A DNA stretch of 63,355 nt, the filler included, from Licmophora abbreviata (Eukaryota): assembly GCA_900291995.1 (NCBI GenBank). It is 54 parts of 54 records of this genome, joined end to end, with 100 filler letters (N's around TTAATTAATTAA, not from the genome) between each part and the next. Parts side by side here need not be neighbours in the genome. Positions count along the whole stretch, not along the records: positions 26,370 to 27,449 come from OLMU01006738.1; 53 more parts are not named here. One strand, given 5' to 3'. Made by a program: the position numbers and the translations under genes. The notes under the pieces are model-generated. The model searched no databases and was not told where the DNA came from. It saw nothing but the letters and a program-made list of their open reading frames with translations. Below, in pieces: positions 4,865 to 52,625 of the stretch. Each line of letters begins with the position of its first letter. Position 1 is the stretch's first letter.

Positions 4865-5659
4865 CAGCGTCGGTTTTCGACTTCTTATTTTTCCAAGTAA
4901 AAAAAGCAGAAATAAACATTTTGCTACTATTGATCGCGTATTACGTCAAAATAAGACCGCGAAACAATCGCAAATTGTCAGGAAACTGAACCCTATTATA
5001 ATTGGTTGGACTATTTATTTTAGGTATTCGCATTTCTTAACGACAAAAATAGGTGGTTATATGAAGCAAATTTTGTTTAATAAGCTTATGTATTGGGGAA
5101 GAAGGAAACTTAACTCGGCCAACAAATCAATGAGTGTTTATGATAAATTCTGGCACAAAATCGATGGGAGACGACAATTTGCTTTTAAAGATCGTGACGG
5201 TGAATATGTTACAATTTCACTTTATCGAAAAATTGCGAAAGAAGTTTCCCTTGTGAAATATGTAAAAGTTAAAGGAGGTGTTTCGGTGTATAATGGTGAT
5301 CTTAACTACTGGTCTAGAAGAGCAATCATTCCTGATTTAAAAACTCGGACGAGAGCTCAACTGTTAAAGCGACAGAACTATAAGTGTCCGCTTTGTGGAA
5401 AGATCTTTTTACCTTTTGACATCATTGAAACTGATTATATTACTCCTATTGCTAAAGGCGGTTTCTCATAAGATTACTAACTTGCAGCTTTTACATGCGG
5501 TATGTCATGACAAAGAAAGGGATAATTAATCAAAATAATTTTTAGCTGTGCAAAACTTCGAGTTTTCCCAGTGATGCTTGAGGAGCCGTGTGCGTTGAAA
5601 GACGCACGCACGGTTTTGGGGAGAGTTTGGCGGTTATAAAACAGCCATTCGATTCTCTG
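4865..5659 (+). mobile_element. 3' part of a mitochondrial group II intron in rnl (domains IV-VI)
   Basis: 34-nt domain V GAGCCGTGTGCGTTGAAAGACGCACGCACGGTTT at 5583-5616, then a domain VI hairpin with candidate bulged A at 5652, followed directly by LSU rRNA sequence. Confidence 0.92.
4866..5529 (+). pseudogene. Intron-encoded protein C-terminus (maturase X + D + HNH) with damaged endonuclease domain
   Basis: KLNPIIIGWTIYFR, YVKVKG..SVYNGDLNYWSRR and LLKRQNYKCPLCG. ETDYITP stands where DHI is expected. An extra T at about 5463 puts the rest (SHKITNLQLLHAVCHDK) in another frame. Confidence 0.85.
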
Positions 5660-5925
5660 CCTATCTACCATAAGTGTTAAAAATTGAGAGGATTAAACCC
5701 TAGTACGAGAGGACCGGGAAAGGCAAATCTCTGGTGAATCGATTGTCGTACCAACGGCACTGTCGAGTAGCTATATTTGTAATAGATAATCGCTGAAAGC
5801 ATCTAAGCGAGAAACTAACCTCAAAATTTATTTTTTTATAGATGTAATAGATGATTACATAGATAGGCTTGATGTGTGAAAATTGTAAGATTTTAAGCTG
5901 ACAAGTACTAAAAATTTTTAACTAT
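5660..5925 (+). rRNA. rnl: Mitochondrial LSU rRNA, 3' terminal exon (3' end approximate)
   Basis: CCTATCTACC, sarcin-ricin loop AGTACGAGAGGACC (5702-5715) and GCTGAAAGCATCTAAGC, in AT-rich sequence. Confidence 0.92.
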
Positions 5926-6079
5926 ATAAACTTTTTAACTGATATAAGTTTAAAAATATTTTAAATCTATATATTATAGNNNNNNNNNNNNNNNNNNNNN
6001 NNNNNNNNNNNNNNNNNNNNNNNTTAATTAATTAANNNNNNNNNNNNNNNNNNNNNNNNNNNNNNNNNNNNNNNNNNNN

Positions 6080-7093
6080 GGTTTCGTCCATAGCACTTTC
6101 CTTCGCTACAGACTTCCAGTCGCCATCACGGAGCCGCTCAAGCAAGTTCTTTCCGCTTTCGCGTATGCGCTGTCTTGCCTCTTCTGTCACTGGTCGACAC
6201 CCCCCAAAGTCAGTCAACTTGATGTGCCCAGTCTCGGTAATGAGAATGTTTTCCGGCTTGAGATCAACGTAGACAAGGCCAAGATCATGAATGCTCGCAA
6301 GCGCCGCTACGATCTCGCCGACCACAAATCGCGTCGACTCGTCATCGAGCGAACCATTTTGACGAAGCAAAGTATGAAGGTCGCCTTTGCTAGCATACTC
6401 CAACACAAGATAGGCACCATCACGGAAACGAAACGAAGAGACGAGTCGTGCAATACACGGGTGCGACAGTATCCGAAGAGTAGCGATCTCACGCTGAATT
6501 GAGCTTTCGTATCCCATATCGACAATTTTCTTTGTACTGACAATCTTGACAGCATACTCGGGCCAGTGAGACCGAGTCTTCTCCCTTACTATCAGGCGAG
6601 CGTACTTCACAGACCCAAACGATCCTGAGCCCAGATCATGCCCAAACACCAAGTCATGGAACTTCAACGTAGGGAGCAACGTCGGGGATTCTGCCATCTG
6701 GGCCTTTACCCATGACGATGAACTCTCGCTTTCATCGTCTTGTTCTGGTTTCAATCGATTCATATAAGACGTCACATAGCCAAAACCAACATTTTCTTTT
6801 CTTCCGGTCCTCTCTTCTGCGAAAGGATCCAATGCAGGCCCTAGATGGGCGTCCCCTCCATTCCGATTCTCTTGTCGACTGATCGGAGTGGTATGCTGTG
6901 AAGCCCAAGGAGCAACACCGGTAATGCTCAAGGGAGGAGGTGCACCCTGAGATTTGTTGGCCCAAGGTGCTACGCCCGTGACTGTCAAGGGCGGCGACTT
7001 GCCGTTGGAAGCTCCAAGACCTTTTTTTGGTCTTGACCGAGGAGGTAGCATGCGATGCTTTCCCGTCCCTGGCGGTGGTCGCCAATCGCCCAT
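6080..7093 (-). CDS. Partial Ser/Thr protein kinase (AGC group, PDK1-like)
   Basis: GSGSFGSV, YAVK, YVDLKPEN and DFG motifs. The frame may extend to the contig edge at 7184. Confidence 0.9.
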
Positions 7094-7284
7094 GTCACTC
7101 TTCAGTGAAAATTCTCTGAGCGTGCTGGTCGAGACTGGCGCTCTTGCAACCTCTGTTGTGGGAACTGCTTGCTGCGACGATACTNNNNNNNNNNNNNNNN
7201 NNNNNNNNNNNNNNNNNNNNNNNNNNNNTTAATTAATTAANNNNNNNNNNNNNNNNNNNNNNNNNNNNNNNNNNNNNNNNNNNN

Positions 7285-7501
7285 CAGGGGCGACTCGCGG
7301 CGGAACAAGAGACGGAAAAGGAAAAGCAGGGGCGACTCGCGGCGGAACAAAAGACGGAAAAGGAAAAGCAGGGGCGACTCGCGGCGGAACAAAAGACGGA
7401 AAGGAAAAGCAGGGGCGACTCGCGGCGGAACAAAAGACGAAAAAGGAAAAGCAGGCGCGACTCGCGGCGGAACAAAAGACGGAAAAGGAAAAGCAGGCGC
7501 G
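7285..7501 (+). repeat. 42-bp coding tandem repeat, 5 copies plus a partial copy (QGRLAAEQKTEKEK)
   Basis: Unit CAGGGGCGACTCGCGGCGGAACAAAAGACGGAAAAGGAAAAG starts at 7285, 7327, 7369 (41 bp), 7410 and 7452. Confidence 0.97.
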
Positions 7502-8386
7502 GATCAAGGACCAGCGTGACCATTCCATTGGCACTTTCATCGACTCAATGCCACGCGTTTCTCTGAACTCGAGCTCTTCTCCTCATGTTCAGACAGGCTA
7601 CCGAGAGGCGCGCAAAACTATTATTAACTTTCCAAGAGACGAAACACTCGTCGATGCCTTAACGGATTGGTACGGTGCGTCTACATGGGTTCCCTACCAA
7701 GAGGATATTCAGGTCGAAGAAGACGTTACGGTTCAAGTGAACGTTCTCCTAAGAAATATCATTTCGGCTCTGGGACTTGCAGATGTACTGGGTGTACACC
7801 AAAACCGCTCAATAATGGACATAGCGCCGGATCTGCTCATTGTGTACAAGCCTAGCAGGTTGCCGATCGGCACAGTTGAAGTGAAGAAGCCTTGCGACTA
7901 TAATGCAGACCATCACTACCAGATCTTCGGTGAGGGTAACTCGCAGGTGAACGGGCAAGTCTTTGATCAGTTGAGCCTCCTACGCCTCAATGGTCCGAAG
8001 TCACCGATTGGACTTGTTACTACCTGGAACACATGGCAGTTGGTTTCCCTCACGTCAAATTTTGAAGCTCCAACTATTGATGCAATTAAAAAGTACCGAT
8101 CGATCGAAGGCACAGCGTCGAGACAAAAATCCTCGCCAGAAGCAGTCATTGCTCCCGAGCTCGACGATTGTCAACGAATTGTCGTGCATTCGTCGACGTC
8201 TCAAATGAAAGCGGGCTCGAATACAAAAACGTCCAAAGGGTCCAAGGTTCAAGCTCTGTCTAAAGACGCGGAACGGCTGGTATATGCAAGCGAACCTGTT
8301 GAGGCTGGCAAGGCGGTGGGGGCGCTGCTGGCAACAGCAGTGTTGGCGATGGTGCGGTCCTCAAAGGACCGGCAGTATATCGGAAA
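7410..8386 (+). CDS. Partial CDS: coiled-coil repeats plus PD-(D/E)XK nuclease-like domain (Crinkler/RHS-effector-like)
   Basis: Repeat copies 4-5 are in frame with the 7548 ORF. Motifs APDLLIV...IGTVEVKKP...GQVFDQL...GLVTTWNTW. Confidence 0.6.
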
Positions 8387-8756
8387 NNNNNNNNNNNNNN
8401 NNNNNNNNNNNNNNNNNNNNNNNNNNNNNNTTAATTAATTAANNNNNNNNNNNNNNNNNNNNNNNNNNNNNNNNNNNNNNNNNNNNCGGACGGCGGTCGC
8501 ACGCCCACCTTCAAACTGTGGAGCAAGCCCTAGACCTATCGTACCGTATTACAGTACTATTAGCCCAGCATAGTCGACCCGATTCATACTCTTAGACTTG
8601 CTGCGTCCCATATTCAAGAACAAGTCAACTCGTTACAATTGAAAAAAGAGTCAAAGTCCTACTGCGATGCTGAACTGACTACGTCGTATCGTACGCCCCG
8701 CTCCAGTTGATCAGTGTAGGACCTAATGATGGTTCTCACATGATTTACACTTTACA

Positions 8757-9589
8757 CTACGCAATAGTTGCATAGCACCACGACATGCTCAGAAACCTTG
8801 CATTCAAGTCATCGTATCGATCGACATATCCGGTATGAACGGGCACGTCGCCCGTGCAATGAGCATGCTTCAAAACCCCTTCTGCCACGGCTTCATCAAA
8901 GGCTCTTCGTGTTTGTTTTTTGGCCATCATGTCATCCAAAATCATCCTGCCTCCCTTTTTCGTAGCCTTGGCGGCATTGATGATATCAATCTTGGCACCC
9001 TCGTAGCTGTGGGATTATAGGAAATGGTGTGAGAAAATAGGAGACAGTGGTGTGATGATAGTCAGGAACGGGACGCAAAGTGAACGTACCTATGATCCCC
9101 GTCGACCGAAAAGACATCACATTTCTCGTTGGGATGGTCTTTCGTCCACTTCGGCACCACTTCAGTAGAATTTCCCTTGATAAATTCGAAGCGACGGGGA
9201 TATAGCATTTCCACATATTGCTGACCCGTTGGAGAATAAGTCCACATGCCCAAATCAAACACGGTCAAGTTGGCATCCTTCTCTTTCAAACCCGTAGCTG
9301 AAGCTGCCAAGAATATGAGAGCCGAGTGTCCTCCGTTGAACCCAATCTCACATAGATGCTGCAACTTTCCCAACGACCGAAGCCAATCATAATAAAAGGT
9401 CGCTTGCGGTGGACGGTTGCCAATGTGCGACATCATGGCCCAAGCCCGTGTTTCCAAGTGTTTGTAGTCGTCATGATGCTTACTATCAATGTGCAACGTG
9501 AGACCCTCCATGGTGGCCATGAGAAGGTCGTGTTCTCGGGCACTGGAAACGTCGGAACAAGGCATGCAACAGGTATTTTCCGGAGTGGC
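8757..9589 (-). CDS. Partial class I SAM-dependent methyltransferase (Methyltransf_24-like); intron 9007-9089
   Basis: CEIGFNGGHSA, IKGNS and VDGDH|SYEGAKIDI...MILDD. An 83-bp GT..AG intron joins ORFs 9062..9565 and 8757..8945. Confidence 0.85.
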
Positions 9590-10888: not shown

Positions 10889-11987
10889 GTGTACACCTTC
10901 CACAAGGAGAAGTGTCGCCGTCGAAAGCCCACTGGATCCAATCGAAACAAATTCCGAACTTGGAACCGGAAGTCCGTCTAGCGTCACGGTTCCCATTGCC
11001 ACGTCCTCATCGTCGGAAATAATGGTAACATAGTGGGTGTTGAATTGGGCACCACCGACAGTTGAGAATGTGTATTCGCTGAGATATTGGTCCGTAGGGA
11101 TCATATTGCCCATGGCCGGGTCTCCGTCGACGGCTCCTGCAGAGGTGACGCCAGTCATGAACTGTACGACGAATATTGGTTTGTCACCCTCAAACAAGTA
11201 GTTGCCCGGCAGCTGAGCTGTCTCGAAGAACTCTCCTTTGTTGAGATTCACCAGTGAGGCGCCATCTTGAGTGACCGAAGTGTTGTCTTCTGCTGCAACG
11301 ATACGGTACACAGACCCGGACGGTCTCTGGGGGAGGTTGGCGACTGCGATGGATCGGCCCCAGGGTTGCACTGGCTGGGCCACTTGGAACGAATGGTCAC
11401 AGAACGCGACACCCTGTGGAATATTCGAGCAGGAATTTCCATTGGTCACAGTGACACGTTGCGATGCCACGATGGTCGATCCCGTCAACGTGGAGGCTGC
11501 GCCAGACTCTCTGCTAACTCGAGCGTAGTACGACTCGCCACGGTCCAGAGTCACGTTAAAGGCACCGTTGACAGCAAAATGGCCAAAGATGTTATTCGTC
11601 GGAGTGATCGTCACTACTGTGCCATCGAACACAGCGGTAACAACAAACCGAGCTCGATTTCTGTAATCCAAGACAATGTATTCTGTGTTGAGCGCGACAA
11701 TGGGAAATGCAAGCGCTGCATCGGATGTTCGTCTAATGCGGTTGATCATGTAAACGATGAAGTCGTCGGCTGCTCGTATTCTTACGGAGTTCGCGTTGTT
11801 AGAGCCCGGAGCCCAACCTTGAGCAGCTTCACTAGGCAGCGTAATGATCGTGATATTGTTGGGATCTACCATGACAGAGGATAGAAAGATCGTTCCAACA
11901 GGATATTCGACAATCACACTGGTAGTCGTATTTATGGAGGTCACATGGAGCTCGACGAATGGAGGATCATAGTTTTCCAAAAAGCTC
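10889..11987 (-). CDS. Partial CDS: IgGFc-binding protein N-terminal-like domain
   Basis: FLENY...LHVTS, SDAALAFPIVALNTEYIV, FVVTAVFDGTVVTI, CDHSFQVAQPVQPWG and GDPAMGNMIPTDQYLSEYTF. Confidence 0.8.
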
Positions 11988-12371
11988 NNNNNNNNNNNNN
12001 NNNNNNNNNNNNNNNNNNNNNNNNNNNNNNNTTAATTAATTAANNNNNNNNNNNNNNNNNNNNNNNNNNNNNNNNNNNNNNNNNNNNTTGCTCCAAAATA
12101 CCCCTCTTTAGTTTATAATATCCTCGGCATCCAAACCGCCTTACATCTTCATGTTGGTAGTAGGTGAGATGTGAGACGGCGCTTAGTCAAAGGCGGCGGA
12201 CGGACGCGCCCGTGGTGAGCTCTACGAGTACTCGTATCATATAGTTTTTGTCATCCAACGGCCAACGGATGACAGTGACGGTGCGATGGATGACCGTGCG
12301 GTCTGCACATTTATGTGATGGGATTGTGTGTTGTGTCACATAATAGACGAGCTTATGATAAACTACCAAGG

Positions 12372-13183
12372 ATGAAGCGAAGCTCCGATCCCCGACCGGC
12401 TTCAGGATCATCGTCCATCACCATCAACCATGCTGGTACCGGTATCATTAGACGACGCCGAGCATACGCCTGTAGTTGTCAAACTTCGAAAGCCATCAGA
12501 GGTCCGTTGCTTGTGATGTGGGTGATGGGGATGGCGACCATGTCTTGGTTTTGGGTGTCGTTGAGAGATAGTATCGACATGTTCTCTCTTTCGCCGGCTA
12601 TCATGCTCTCCAACGAAACCTCGCAAGTCGGCATCCTCAGTAGTCATTTTGATGGAAACGACGAGAGCAGACTACTCAATGCCCAACAAAATGACCGGGC
12701 CCTTTCCAATGAAAACTGCACCTGTGTCGACTGTCCGCAAGACCTGAACTGCGGGGGTCTCTGGAAAGGCGATGCCATAGGAGGGAACGCTTCTTCTTTC
12801 CCTTACGTGTCGATTGTGGTGTCCCATTGTCTTCATTCGCTCGATTGGCTGGCGGGTTTCTTGGAGGGCTTTCCAATTCGCAACGTCACTGTAATTTCCA
12901 AATGCAACGAACCAGTCGAGGGAGCACCGGTCGGATCTACCATAGTACGATTACCCAATGTCGGTCGTTGCGATCACACCTACGCTTACTGGATGGCAGA
13001 GTATGCGAAACGATCTGCTGATACTACTACAACTCAAGAAAAAGAAAACAATGAAGTTGTGGTCTTTCTCAAGGACAATCGCAGCGATGAGAGCATTCAT
13101 CAAATGGGCCTATGGCGCTCCTTGCATGATATGCTACGGATTGCTTCTAAGAATGGCTTTGCCTGTGGCATGGCACCGACTGG
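12372..13183 (+). CDS. Partial type II membrane protein with DUF3431-like domain
   Basis: Transmembrane helix, then IVVSHC..SLDWL, LPNVGRCDHTYAYW and VVVFLKD. Confidence 0.7.
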
Positions 13184-13341
13184 NNNNNNNNNNNNNNNNN
13201 NNNNNNNNNNNNNNNNNNNNNNNNNNNTTAATTAATTAANNNNNNNNNNNNNNNNNNNNNNNNNNNNNNNNNNNNNNNNNNNNCAGTGTTAACACTCACG
13301 AAGTGTTTAGTCTTAGAAAAGACTCTACTGAACGAGAAACC

Positions 13342-24960: not shown

Positions 24961-25241
24961 CATCAGTTATTTGTAATATCAACTTTCGTTCGCTTGGTTG
25001 AGCACATCGCTCACCGGCGATATCCGGAGCTGGGGTTACCGATAGGTGTTGCGAGCAGGGGCCAACAAAACCATCTTGCGTGAAAGCGATNNNNNNNNNN
25101 NNNNNNNNNNNNNNNNNNNNNNNNNNNNNNNNNNTTAATTAATTAANNNNNNNNNNNNNNNNNNNNNNNNNNNNNNNNNNNNNNNNNNNNGGCCGGTTGT
25201 GGCCCCGCCATTCACGCCGGCCCATTGGGCCGACGCAAATC

Positions 25242-25940
25242 TCATTCCGACGCCGCGTTCGAGACGTCGATGCTGACACCCGGACCCATGGTCGAGGTCA
25301 GCGAAATCTTCTTCATGTAGGTGCCCTTGGCACCTGCCGGCTTGGCCTTGGCCACTGCCGTCACGAAGGCGCGCACGTTTTCCACCAGCTTGGCATCGTC
25401 AAACGACGCCTTGCCGACACCTGCATGCACGACACCGGCCTTTTCGGCCTTGAACTGGACTTCACCGCCCTTGGCGGCCTTGACGGCGTCACCTACGTCC
25501 ATGGTCACGGTGCCGACTTTGGGGTTCGGCATCAGGTTGCGCGGGCCAAGCACCTTGCCCAGACGACCGACGATCGGCATCATGTCCGGGGTTGCGATGC
25601 AGCGATCGAAATCGATCTTGCCGCCCTGAATGGTTTCCATCAGGTCTTCGGCGCCCACGATATCGGCACCTGCGGCCTGCGCTTCTTCGGCCTTGGCGCC
25701 ACGGGCGAACACGGCAACGCGCACGTCCTTGCCGGTGCCATTCGGCAGGCCGACAACACCGCGGACCATCTGGTCGGCGTGGCGCGGATCGACGCCGAGA
25801 TTCATCGAAATCTCGACCGTTTCATCGAATTTCGCGTTTGCGTTGGCCTTGATCAGCGCAACGGCTTCCTCGACGCTGAGGTTTTCCTTGCCAGCGAATG
25901 CCTCGCGTGCGGCGCGGGTGCGTTTTCCAAGCTTTGCCAT
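25242..25940 (-). CDS. rplA: Bacterial 50S ribosomal protein L1 (Rhodobacteraceae-like)
   Basis: [15 protein letters not shown]...[14 protein letters not shown]...[15 protein letters not shown], with high-GC codon usage. Confidence 0.98.
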
Positions 25941-25941
25941 C

Positions 25942-26268
25942 TTACTTCACCTCGATGCCCATGGAACGCGCGGAGCCGAGGATGATTTTCATCGCGGCGT
26001 CAACATCGTTCGCGTTCAGGTCTTTCCACTTGGCTTCGGCGATTTCGCGCACCTGCTTGGTGGACACTGTGCCAGCGGTCGCGCGGCCCGGCGTATTGGA
26101 CCCAGACTGCAGCTTTGCGGCCTTCTTGAGGTAGTACGACGCCGGCGGCGTCTTGATGTCCATCTCGAAAGACTTGTCCTGGTAATAGGTGATTACGGTC
26201 GGGCACGGCGCACCGGGCTCCATGTCCTGCGTCTTGGCGTTGAACGCCTTGCAGAATTCCATGATGTT
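25942..26268 (-). CDS. rplK: Bacterial 50S ribosomal protein L11, 5'-partial
   Basis: [13 protein letters not shown]...KTPPASY...[10 protein letters not shown], directly upstream of rplA. Confidence 0.98.
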
Positions 26269-26369
26269 GNNNNNNNNNNNNNNNNNNNNNNNNNNNNNNN
26301 NNNNNNNNNNNNNTTAATTAATTAANNNNNNNNNNNNNNNNNNNNNNNNNNNNNNNNNNNNNNNNNNNN

Positions 26370-26953
26370 CTATAGGTAGTAAATATTAATGAGGAAATAC
26401 GAAAAAAACGTTGCTGACTAGAGGCACACGTTTAAATAATATATTGGCCCCGAAAATTCGAGATTTTTCTGCGAATGTACCACAGTCAGACGCTCTTGTG
26501 TTTGTTATAGTAGATAAAAGTAAGCTCTCCAGCTTAACAGGTAGTTTGATTTTTGACAAAACTTGTTCAGTCTCACTTGACACAATATTATTTATTGAAA
26601 AAATGAGTAATATGTAAAGACAATAGGTCAACTTTATATAAAGCCGCATTCAGCACGGATAATCTGTTAGCTGCATATGGCCAAATAAAATCTAAACCTG
26701 GAAATTTTAACACTGCACCAAGTGGAGAAAACCCTGCAGGGTACTAGTTTAAAATGGTTTAAGAATCACTAGCAATAAACTACTTAAAGGTTTATTTGTT
26801 TACCCAAAAATGCGTCGCGTTTCCATTCAAATTTTCTTTTTTAATGCTTATAACTGTGGTAATTCCCCCTTAGCTCTAAAGCTAAGGGGTTTTCGGTGAA
26901 AGCTGTATAGGTGAAAGCCTTCGTACAGCTTCGAGGGCATGTTCTGACCCGCT
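26370..26953 (+). mobile_element. 3' part of an internal (nested) group II intron with a decayed ORF remnant
   Basis: Frameshifted RT0-RT1 remnant at 26634-26831 (NLLAAYGQIKSKPGN...KWF...YPKMRRVSI). Domain V AAGCTGTATAGGTGAAAGCCTTCGTACAGCTT at 26900-26931. Domain VI GGGCA-TGTTC-TG(A)CCC with bulged A at 26947. Confidence 0.8.
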
Positions 26954-27449
26954 TATACTTTCGTTTATCTTGTTCGTTCACAATTTATAAAAAGTAAATG
27001 GCTACATAGACATAAGCCTGAGTATAGACTTCAAGGTAGACCTAAACTATATGTTTATCCTTCAAAAACAGCTCTTAAATCTTTTAAAACCTGTTTTAAA
27101 TGTATTATAACAAAAAACCAAAATGTTTCTGCCTATAAATTAATTGCATTTTTAAATCCAAGAATTAAAAGCTGGGTTAATTACTATTCATTTTCAAATG
27201 CCCGAGGAGTTTTAAGCTTTTTACGTAACTGGATTTATGTAAGAGTCGTAATTTGGATGAAACGAAAACATCCGAAAAGTTCAACAATTTGGTTAAACAA
27301 ACATTATTTTTTACTAGAAAATTTTTTAGAAGAGCACAACTTGAAAGAAAATCCTAAAATAGTGGATTACTTCGCAAAAAAAGGTTTCTCACCACTAGTA
27401 AAACAAAATAAATGGAATTTTTATGGAATTGCACGAAAAAGTTGGGAAG
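26954..27449 (+). CDS. External group II intron-encoded RT/maturase, from RT7 through domain X (partial)
   Basis: The frame opens at YTFVYLVR...LYVYPSKTALKSFK...LIAFLNPRIKSWVNYYSF...WMKRKHPK, 101 stop-free codons before the ATG at 27257. Confidence 0.88.
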
Positions 27450-31077: not shown

Positions 31078-31214
31078 GTGATGGCGGACCCATGTCGGGC
31101 GCCCAATCGTCAGCCGCCCCCGCGACTGTGTGCGGAGAGCGGGCATCACTTTGCCACTGGGGTTTCCCCGGGAAGGCCGATGCCCGCAGTGACCCGCGAG
31201 CCAGGAGACCGGCC
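31078..31214 (+). promoter_or_regulatory. Cobalamin riboswitch (5' end cut by contig edge)
   Basis: GCCCCCGCGACTGT, GCCACTG...GGGAAGG and B12 box AGCCAGGAGACCGGCC, upstream of a metal transporter. Confidence 0.92.
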
Positions 31215-34591: not shown

Positions 34592-35306
34592 ATTCTGTCA
34601 TGTTCTTGTTGTAAAAATTGTTTTTTTCTTTTTTTGTATACGTTATTTTATCTTTTTTTACCTTTTACTCTAATATATTTTGTTTTTACTTTTTTCCTCA
34701 CCACTGAGGTTTTATTTTGTTAACAATATTTTCATATCCTTATTCACACGCGACAATTTACTAATCCTCCCACCCCGATTGGTTACACATTGTTGGGCAC
34801 AAGATTGGTAAAAAGTCGACCTTCTTACCCTAACTCCATTATGAGCCTCTTCTCACATAGAATCCTCGGCCTAACCGTTAGGAATTCTTTAGTCAGCAAA
34901 CCTGGTTTAATTTATAAATGTACGGGATCTCCATTCAGCCTTTTAATCTCTTCTCGAGTCAGTGCAATAGTAATTTGGAAGACTAGGAGTTAGGTTAATT
35001 GTCTAATTCCTCTACTATCTAAGTTCTTTTGGAGAATATAACTTCTGGCACGACGTACCACACTTTAGCCTGGATTTAAGAACTAATCCTTAATCCGCTA
35101 TAAATTTCCTCGGGTTCTCTCAATTTCTTCTCCTTACATATTGAAAACCCTTTACTAGCATGCGTTGTTTCCCTCACGCTTTCGCGACTATTTTGGTTTT
35201 TCTTTTTAAGTTTTGTTGTATTTGGGTTAGCTAGTCGGATTTCGACAGTCTTATGTCGGTAAGCTCTATATGTCTTACTAATCTATAAATCACTCACAGG
35301 TCGCAC
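34592..35306 (-). mobile_element. 5' part of a mitochondrial group II intron in rnl
   Basis: Starts GTGCG exactly where rRNA similarity stops. Collinear with the cob intron at 50858-51508. Confidence 0.9.
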
Positions 35307-35665
35307 ATAAACAGTCGTTGTCCCCGTTTTTGTGTCAGCTTTATAAGGTTGCCCTTATAAAGCTACTCCTTATTCCTAAGTTACGGAGCCATTTTGCCGA
35401 GTTCCTTCAACACAATTTTCTCAAGCGTCTTAATTTACTAAATCTATTCACCTGTGTCGGTTTAGGTACGGTTCTGTAAAAATTTAAAACTATTTCCTGA
35501 AAATACTACATAACCTTTATTTTTCCATTTAATAAAAATTATATTTATATTTTGTCATTTTAAATTATAAAGAAATTTTTATCTTAAACTCATCAAATAA
35601 AACTTTCGCTAATTTTTTAGAGACCGATTAACCCAAGGCAGATTAACTTTTCCTTGGAAACCTTA
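35307..35665 (-). rRNA. rnl: Mitochondrial LSU rRNA internal exon fragment
   Basis: CCGTACCTAAACCGACACAGGT, GAAGGAACTCGGCAAAAT, CCGTAACTTAGGAATAAGG and CGACTGTTTA. Confidence 0.93.
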
Positions 35666-50857: not shown

Positions 50858-51508
50858 CATATTTCTATAATTGGTTTTTATCTTTATAAAGAGTTAATTT
50901 TTTTATTGAGTCTTCCTATTCTCACTTATATTGGTTTCCTTATATAAAATGCTTTTGACGGAATTAACCGGGTCCCTAATTTTTAGACGAACCTCCATAC
51001 TATATAAAAACCATTCCTTAACCTGACCCCCTTTTTGGATCTCTTCTCACATAGTAGCTTCAAATGCTGCTACCTTAGTGAGCAAACTTGGTTTCATAAA
51101 TAAATGTATCGGATACCTATTTAGTCTTTAATTCTCATCCCGAGACGGTGTAATAGTGTATAATTGGTGACCTAGGTATTACGTCATGCATATAATACCC
51201 CCACTATCCAAGTTCTTTTGAAGACTGAAACTTTTGGCTTCCTGTGCCACACCTGACCTAGGTTCAAGATCATATCCTTAATCCTTATTTATCTCCTAGA
51301 GACCATTCAACCTTATTCTTCCTAAGTATCGTGGTCCCGTTATCAACATGCTGTGTTCCCCACACGCTTTCACGTATTTGCATTTTTTTCCAGTTTCGGA
51401 TTTTTTGTCGGTTTTTATGTTTTCGGGTTAGTTGATCGAATTTCTGACAGATCGCTGTCGATAGGCTCTATATGTCCTACTAATTTATTTATGAATCACA
51501 AGTCGCAC
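50858..51508 (-). mobile_element. 5' part of a mitochondrial group II intron in cob
   Basis: GTGCG directly follows the FLAM codons. Collinear with the rnl intron at 34592-35306. Confidence 0.9.
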
Positions 51509-51754
51509 CATTGCTAGAAAGATTCCAGAAAGTATTTGAATTACTAAACAAATACCTGCCGCAGACCCAAAACTCCAAGCATAACTTAAATTGATTGATG
51601 TTGGATAATGTATTAAATGGTTATCTATAAATGCTGTTAAAAAATTTTTGTTCCATCTTAATGTTGTTGTTACAAATAAACTTATGGCACTAGGTATTTC
51701 TAATACATTTGGTGCGTAAGATTTTTTAAATGTATCTTTATATTTTAATTTCAT
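51509..51754 (-). CDS. cob: Mitochondrial apocytochrome b, exon 1 (start uncertain: ATG 51754 or TTA 51661)
   Basis: RWNK...[37 protein letters not shown]. Confidence 0.95.
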
Positions 51755-51755
51755 A

Positions 51756-51830
51756 AAAGTAATTTTGGATTCGAACCAAACTATCCTATATAAAATGAAG
51801 CCATTCTTGACCTATTAATTGAATTACTTT
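51756..51830 (-). pseudogene. Degenerate tRNA-like element (CAU-like loop)
   Basis: Acceptor stem AAGTAAT/ATTACTT and T-arm TTTGG-TTCGAAT-CCAAA pair well. The D and anticodon stems pair poorly. Confidence 0.55.
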
Positions 51831-52625
51831 ATTTAAAATAACGAATATTATCGTTTAATTTTACGTACTGTTTTAGCTATTTGTGTGTGTACGTTGACCT
51901 CTAACNNNNNNNNNNNNNNNNNNNNNNNNNNNNNNNNNNNNNNNNNNNNTTAATTAATTAANNNNNNNNNNNNNNNNNNNNNNNNNNNNNNNNNNNNNNN
52001 NNNNNAACGAACGAATGAATTTTAATACCCTTCGACAAGTAGTTGGATGTTGCTCATCTCTGTCCCTCTTGTGTTCTCGTCGTCCGTCATCATCATTGCA
52101 AATCACACCATTGATTCGGGCTCGACTCTCACATCACTCGATTCGATTCATTCATTTTGCATTTTATCACACTACGAGTACGTACAATCTTGACGGTCCG
52201 ACGCGAGGACAGACTGTCCGCGAATTGGAAAAAATGTCGAATTTCGAAAATGTCACAGAATGTCTGATGTCTGAATTTTGATGTTGTGAATCACGCTCGT
52301 GTAGCCATCGATTAAATAAATTCATACACAATAATCAAGCTTAAATATAGAATAATATGTTCAGAGTCATCGCTTATCATTTATTGAGAGATGACCAGTG
52401 GCTTCTATCATGACGGCCCAACGCACCTCTCTTGCCTCACGAGCATCTACGCTCACAAACTGGGAGGATAAGTGAGATATGCCTCTTGTTCCCTCAATTC
52501 GGGAACCAAACCGCAATCTCCACTCTTTCCACCGAGAATGGGACCATTCCATAGTATTTCATCAATCACTTTCGTGATCATCGAGACCAAAGCTTCCTTG
52601 CGGTTGACATCGATTTCGAGCAATC

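Follow-up and report, generated by a model that had tools for sequence, protein, structure and literature searches.

Does the short, AT-rich contig at positions 26370–27449 carry one group II intron inside the protein gene of another? A preliminary description of the locus had proposed this, with an intron inserted at FLG|YTF of the reverse transcriptase (RT) gene of a second intron. The locus was analysed within a window of 63,355 nt, by which we mean the whole stretch of DNA studied, taken from the Licmophora abbreviata assembly GCA_900291995.1. The window is made up of 54 unrelated contigs of 1,040–1,120 bp each, arranged in order of length with N runs and TTAATTAATTAA spacers between them. 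Positions 26370–27449 are one complete contig of 1,080 bp with 32.6% GC. The contigs adjoining it in the window are unrelated and N-spaced, and no sequence common to it and any other window contig was found.

Most contigs of the window have 45–67% GC and are bacterial or nuclear in appearance. Ribosomal protein L11/L1 genes (25191–26269) and a cobalamin riboswitch (31092–31208) were found among them. AT-rich (33–35% GC), organelle-like sequence was confined to four contigs, at 4865–5979, 26370–27449, 34592–35665 and 50858–51905. Two of the other AT-rich contigs hold pieces of an organellar large-subunit rRNA, one of them with a group II intron, as revealed by Rfam. The contig 26370–27449 is probably diatom-type mitochondrial DNA. 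The diatom label was derived from the nearest named relative of its outer gene, which belongs to Halamphora, and from a cytochrome b (cob) fragment in the window, which is nearest to diatom cob proteins.

Several observations were made on the other organelle-like contigs. The contig at 4865–5979 contains the 3' part of another group II intron, within the large-subunit rRNA gene (rnl). Rfam placed Intron_gpII at 5581–5658 with 59 bits, and the rRNA continues from 5678. The HNH end of the rnl-intron gene is apparently frameshifted near 5465–5475, as judged by eye. The cob fragment, at 51485–51811 on the minus strand, is the start of the gene. Its best relatives were 88–94% identical, and the nearest named proteins were those of the diatoms Coscinodiscus wailesii, Coscinodiscus granii and Toxarium undulatum.

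Reverse transcriptase genes of two lineages

The upstream part of the contig had been described as a decayed RT0–RT1 remnant (IKSKPGN...RRVSI), and translated searches bore this out. Similarity was distributed over four frame pieces (26390–26614, 26615–26705, 26701–26769 and 26753–26827), which were colinear with residues about 87–228 of the protein P0204 and also with P0203, P0205, P0206 and P0207 (tblastn E-values 3e-30 to 2e-14). Three +1 frameshifts, at about 26612–26616, 26705 and 26761, and in-frame stops interrupt the remnant. Similarity stops at RRVSI(Q), so that RT2 through the X domain have been deleted.

A protein search with the 69-aa frame containing IKSKPGN...RRVSI returned five relatives. 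P0207 (705 aa), with the domains RVT_1 and Intron_maturas2 (PF01348), was the only full-length relative of the remnant found. The best solved relative of P0207, which was compared in place of the stub, was LtrA (E 4e-35), with the 6ME0 maturase at 1e-6. The gene behind the inner remnant appears to have been LtrA-like, of the Intron_maturas2 type. No similarity was detected by blastn between 26370–26952 and 13 loci carrying the outer gene, and P0207 had no relatives in the viral_contigs collection. A further inner-type gene copy, P0206 (225 aa), has its RT1 (MRRV) fused straight to RT5 (YVRYADDF). This internal deletion was an independent event in the same intron family as the inner intron.

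Downstream, a frame starting with YTF 7 nt after a bulged A had been said to run intact into a maturase X domain. Starting at 26954, it is open for 165 codons to the contig end, with no stop or frameshift, and it contains a GIIM maturase domain (PF08388) at 27077–27310 (Pfam E 1.7e-14). From 193 candidates, 56 relatives of this piece were obtained, the best of them 84–77% identical over the full piece. Most are RT/maturase/HNH proteins of 830–900 aa, with RVT_1, GIIM and HNH domains; over the corresponding part, the window piece is 64–84% identical to proteins of this kind. The only named relative belongs to the diatom Halamphora calidilacuna (64%). The HNH domain of the outer gene lies beyond the contig end and is known from the relatives. 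In these, ...NTPFDFLG runs directly into the first residues of the window copy, YTFVYLVRSQFIKSK, so that YTF completes the RT7 motif FLG(Y/F)TF, as had been suggested.

The outer-type protein P0002, with GIIM and HNH domains, had the 6ME0 maturase as its best solved relative (E 5e-70), with LtrA at 5e-25, and the outer gene appears to be T.el4h-like. The assignment of the two genes to two RT lineages, already made in the preliminary description, held at the protein level. P0207 leads to LtrA and Intron_maturas2, which we take to be the mitochondrial, IIA-associated lineage. P0002 leads to 6ME0 (T.el4h) and GIIM, presumably the chloroplast-like, IIB-associated lineage.

Thirteen metagenome loci were compared, and in six of them (L001–L006) the outer gene is uninterrupted through FLG-YTF. 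In the 13-kb locus L006 it is fused in frame with cox2 exon 1 (COX2_TM and COX2 domains), and downstream of it come a domain V of 34 nt, a domain VI and cox2 exon 2 (GVNHGFMP...). Domains V and VI of this cox2 intron are almost invariant in all seven loci with which they were compared, and the outer gene of the relatives sits between the CSEIC and GVNH codons of cox2. With the in-frame exon 1, domains V and VI and exon 2 in place, the relatives carry the outer gene as the protein-coding gene of a group II intron in cox2. The window's own copy would likewise lie in a cox2 intron.

Further features of the relatives were recorded. Their cox2 intron (L006 1385–4232) starts with UGACGAC right after CSEIC in five of the five aligned loci (L001 and L003–L006), a 5' start that differs from the usual GUGYG. 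Its domain V in L006 (4158–4191) is strongly conserved, with a G-A mismatch at the G of the triad, and was missed by Rfam even at E ≤ 10. L006 also contains two more Intron_maturas2-type RT genes, at 6105–9092 and 11124–13271. One of these extra genes comes after nad7 and is followed by an Rfam-passing domain V at 9107–9170. The other is 35% identical to P0207 and 45% identical to P0204 and P0205 over shorter stretches, and no other gene in the fetched loci comes closer to the inner remnant.

Selection on the outer gene was assessed over the 165 codons. Pairwise dN/dS against six relatives was 0.11–0.19, and among five distinct relatives, with the near-identical pair L002–L003 left out, it was 0.07–0.15. 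At 119 sites invariant in five outgroups, the window copy had 14 private amino-acid changes and its sister L001 had one (binomial p 0.001). Private nucleotide changes, counted as nonsynonymous to synonymous, were 15:7 in the window and 2:6 in L001 (Fisher p 0.049), in a small sample and under the assumption, supported by the dS values, that the window and L001 are sisters. The conserved RIRGW is changed to RIKSW in the window copy. Constraint on the outer gene may have been relaxed on the window lineage, and the outer half may be decaying. Such a relaxation would fit a gene that was recently disabled, or one reliant on an inefficient removal of the inner intron.

RNA domains and the 3' junction

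The features of the contig are collected in Table 1. A domain V with an AGC triad and a domain VI with a bulged A had been placed between the remnant and the YTF frame, and both were recovered by folding. Typical domain Vs are hairpins of about 34 nt with an AGC triad, a 2-nt bulge and a GNRA loop. The domain V found here, 32 nt in length, pairs 9 bp in its lower helix, which carries the AGC triad, and 4 bp in its upper helix, which is capped by GAAA; a UC bulge interrupts the 3' strand. The z-score of its fold was −3.3, and one of 200 shuffled sequences was as stable. It corresponds almost base for base to domain Vs of L006 and L002 that pass the Rfam Intron_gpII threshold, with a near-identical lower helix. 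A regular expression for the domain V consensus, composed after the sequences had been seen, matched twice in the 63-kb window, here and in the Rfam-confirmed rnl intron, and in none of 500 shuffles. The exact domain V string had no match in the genome_contigs collection.

Table 1 Features of the contig, with positions counted along the whole window.
Feature	Position	Strand	Basis
Inner group II intron, 3' 585 nt (contig begins inside the intron; end at 26952–26954)	26370..26954	+	ORF remnant, domain V and domain VI
Decayed RT gene remnant, N-terminal up to RT1 (...RRVSI)	26390..26827	+	tblastn of P0203–P0207; alignment
Perfect 10-bp hairpin between ORF remnant and domain V	26866..26889	+	Minimum-free-energy and centroid fold
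Domain V, about 70 nt after the remnant	26900..26931	+	Fold: AGC triad, 2-nt bulge, GAAA loop
Domain VI, short helix with bulged branch-point candidate A26947	26933..26952	+	Fold
Junction zone, two T's assignable to intron or exon	26953..26954	+	Six uninterrupted relatives aligned; point where the other flank departs
Outer RT/maturase gene, C-terminal part with the end of RT7 (Y)TF and the thumb/X domain	26955..27449	+	Pfam, homologues, tblastn, blastn

The Intron_gpII model, put forward earlier as a check, did not respond: Rfam searches of the whole 1,080-nt contig with RF00029 gave no match at the gathering threshold or at E ≤ 10. This miss is weak evidence, since the conserved domain V of the L006 cox2 intron likewise goes undetected by Rfam. 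With a 116-nt query, the sole group II match was to the D5 model RF04357, the first of three matches, at 18.9 bits against a gathering threshold of 53 (E 0.034). The hairpin upstream of domain V may be a leftover of domain IV, as the folds suggest.

In a group II domain VI, a bulged A is expected 7–8 nt before the 3' splice site. The end of the intron, located by two independent comparisons at 26952–26954, comes 5–7 nt after A26947. In the first of these, blastn similarity of 76–87% to L001–L006 begins at 26953 in all six relatives. The break falls inside GGT|TAT of FLG-YTF, 6–7 nt past the bulged A. Were the intron to end at 26954|26955, its removal would leave GGT T|AT ACT, which reads G-Y-T. 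As expected of a twintron, the sequence directly 3' of the inner intron matches the outer gene in each of the six full-length comparisons, and the intron and gene sides have just 2–4 nt in common at the join. The 12 nt before the insertion site in the relatives are …GATTTTTTAGGTT. The terminal bases of the inner intron would be UU (or GC/CU). Group II introns usually end in AY, and this ending counts against the twintron reading.

The insertion at FLG|YTF of another intron's gene, as it had been proposed, is supported at the 3' junction and by the intron-borne position of the outer gene in cox2 of the relatives. The contig starts within domain IV of the inner intron and its ORF, so that the 5' splice site (GUGYG), domains I–III and EBS1 of that intron fall outside it, as does the RT1-6...FLG half of the outer gene. 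When four outer-type proteins were searched against the window by tblastn, the N-terminal half of the outer gene was absent; the matches were the known piece and a weak X-domain match in the rnl-intron gene (4878–5108).

Another protein was observed to begin close to the insertion site. P0006, a protein of 309 aa encoded on a metagenome contig of 2,821 nt, starts with VYLAKSKF..., three residues after YTF, and runs to a normal gene end. It may represent a second organism interrupted at the same codon, or a contig break at the edge of a repeat.

The junction and the inner intron in public sequencing runs

Four public runs were compared with the contig, all of them as assembled contig sets, and the runs listed as containing its sequence included no RNA sample. 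X2 derives from a separate study of a marine metagenome, and substitutions and indels set its pieces apart from the window. One of its contigs, 151 nt in length, spans 26848–26997, with 105 nt on the intron side and 45 nt on the gene side. Sequence across 26900–27000 had been named in the preliminary description as the test for a chimeric join, and this contig supplies it. The junction is real, because it is bridged in an independent run.

One contig each of X1 and X5 matches the window from 26914 or 26891 to 26954, identically or nearly so, and then diverges into a different flank. With this other flank, the inner intron is present in two or more genomic places, and its 3' end is pinned to position 26954 or just before it, 7 nt past A26947. 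The presence of the intron tail at a second site would be the behaviour of a mobile or duplicated intron. A 20-nt motif of the X1/X5 flank had no match in the window with up to three mismatches and no exact match in the 13 loci.

X1 was the best holder of 100%-identical pieces. Its only contig reaching the 3' end of the intron enters the other flank, and none of the X1 contigs returned bridges the intron to the outer gene. Positions 26955–27044 were left essentially uncovered by X1 contigs (depth 0–2.6). This gap does not contradict the junction, since the X1 data are contigs and a hole in contigs proves nothing.

The copies of the inner intron differ in their damage. The X2 copy has a 56-nt deletion (26796–26851) by which the RT1 remnant is gone, and it is without two of the three 1-nt insertions (26616 and 26705). 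The X5 copy is without the insertion at 26616. Further diverged copies of the inner intron were found in X1 and X4. The copies form a small family whose members are decaying independently.

Readings of the locus and known twintrons

The contig probably captures a group II twintron of a diatom-type mitochondrial genome at its 3' junction. Its outer member would be a cox2 group II intron whose T.el4h-like gene encodes RT, GIIM and HNH domains, with the 5' half of that gene upstream of the inner intron. A second, unrelated group II intron would have inserted into the Tyr codon of RT7 FLG-Y-TF, most likely, as we infer, via retrohoming or retrotransposition. The LtrA-like RT gene of the inserted intron has since been reduced, through frameshifts and deletion, to a stub that stops at RT1. 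In the RNA of this intron, domain V remains canonical and is followed by a short domain VI, and the intron is present at one or more further sites in related genomes. For the outer protein to form, splicing would first have to remove the inner intron. With its own maturase lost, it would need a maturase in trans from an intact paralogue. A different fate may also be envisaged, in which removal of the inner intron has ceased and the outer gene is being lost.

Our main reservation arises because the contig displays the 3' junction only, and a rearranged or 5'-truncated relic would look alike. The insertion at FLG|YTF may once have occurred in a locus that is no longer nested, with the C-terminal half of the outer gene left as a dead relic; we regard this as unlikely, though deserving of attention. 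Recombination between inner-intron copies could have split the outer gene, and the two or more genomic contexts and the diverged paralogues of the inner intron would offer substrates for it. Alternatively, the insertion could have been 5'-truncated from the start. The excess of nonsynonymous changes on the window branch and the absence of the outer 5' half from the window by tblastn agree with such a relic. However, the 165 codons have remained free of stops and frameshifts, their overall dN/dS is 0.11–0.19, and the same junction is retained in the diverged X2 copy from another study.

The join could also be an artefact of assembly, a repeated intron end attached to an unrelated maturase-gene contig. 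The window assembly is highly fragmented into contigs of about 1 kb, the inner intron is a repeat, and the Logan contigs of X1 leave the junction unbridged, but we hold a chimera to be very improbable. X2 bridges the same positions with sequence differences of its own, and the join lies exactly at an intron 3' end and exactly inside one conserved codon. A k-mer-mediated misjoin is implausible, since the 2–4 nt common to both sides are far too little for it. The least probable origin, with hardly any chance of being correct, is a single intron after internal deletion and rearrangement, with RT0-1, domains V–VI and the X domain all parts of one element. All pieces do lie on one strand, the first and the last of them in the same reading frame. 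P0207 is, however, only 22–26% identical to the outer-type genes of L001, L004, L005 and L006, the maturase domains (PF01348 and PF08388) and the best solved relatives differ, and a deletion cannot yield the order in which domains V–VI precede the X domain. A single intron was rejected, as the stub and the C-terminal part come from different RT families.

Beyond the twintron junction itself, a working cross-lineage regulatory twintron can be imagined. An ORF-less intron of the LtrA lineage, with a maturase lent by a paralogue, would gate the maturase of the T.el4h lineage and so the maturation of cox2, and FLG|YTF would be a recurrent landing site, as P0006 might indicate. We consider this extended proposal doubtful.

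In Methanosarcina, nested group II introns home into related intron genes. A Trichodesmium twintron is cited as reference 261 in PMC8393795. Both systems are prokaryotic. In each, as is proposed here, group II introns have other group II introns as target sites, in their genes or their RNA.

The closest parallel is found in the mitochondria of the red alga Porphyridium, for which PMC8742464 describes group II twintrons, including "a twintron in orf1166". There, the nested introns are similar to introns elsewhere in that mitogenome, from which the authors infer self-proliferation, and the intron proteins are related to diatom ones, including that of Halamphora calidilacuna. As is proposed for the present contig, a group II intron lies inside a mitochondrial group II intron there, in some instances within an intron-borne gene. 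The two cases differ in the host, a red alga with cob, cox1 and atp9 as host genes as opposed to a diatom-type genome with cox2. Moreover, the Porphyridium elements are complete in finished genomes, whereas the present contig offers the 3' junction only and an inner gene reduced to a stub.

Other twintrons are described in PMC8393795. In the psbF twintron of Euglena gracilis (Copertino and Hallick 1991), one group II intron is nested in another, as is proposed here, and the outer one can be restored only after removal of the inner. That case differs in being a plastid twintron of very small introns, with the inner intron in the RNA of the outer domain V and not in a protein gene. Lycophyte and hornwort mitochondria contain "zombie" and functional twintrons (Zumkeller et al. 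2020). As would be the case here, a hypermobile mitochondrial group II intron invades introns, and some of the pairs are without stepwise splicing, which is one possible fate of the present locus. In contrast, these hosts are land plants, insertion was into intron RNA, including that of the invader itself, and splicing was tested. In the mixed twintron mS1247 of Chaetomium thermophilum, the outer intron's protein gene is made whole again when the inner group II intron is spliced, so that the inner intron gates the outer protein, as it would here. There, however, the host is fungal and the outer intron is a group I intron that carries a homing-endonuclease gene.

The preliminary description knew of no twintron described in diatom mitochondria, and full-text literature searches likewise found none; the Halamphora mitogenome paper (Pogoda et al.) may describe nested introns. 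In the available text of Guillory et al. 2018, the words twintron, nested and cox2 do not occur.

Intron nesting is rare but known, and the 1-kb contig is probably another, half-seen instance of it. Nested group II introns show how retroelements spread through organelle genomes when they insert into one another's genes, and how an intron maturase can become dependent on the removal of another intron. If the full structure is true, diatoms would join the hosts of mitochondrial twintrons, and the locus would be a natural case of a mitochondrial-lineage intron inside the gene of a chloroplast-like-lineage intron.
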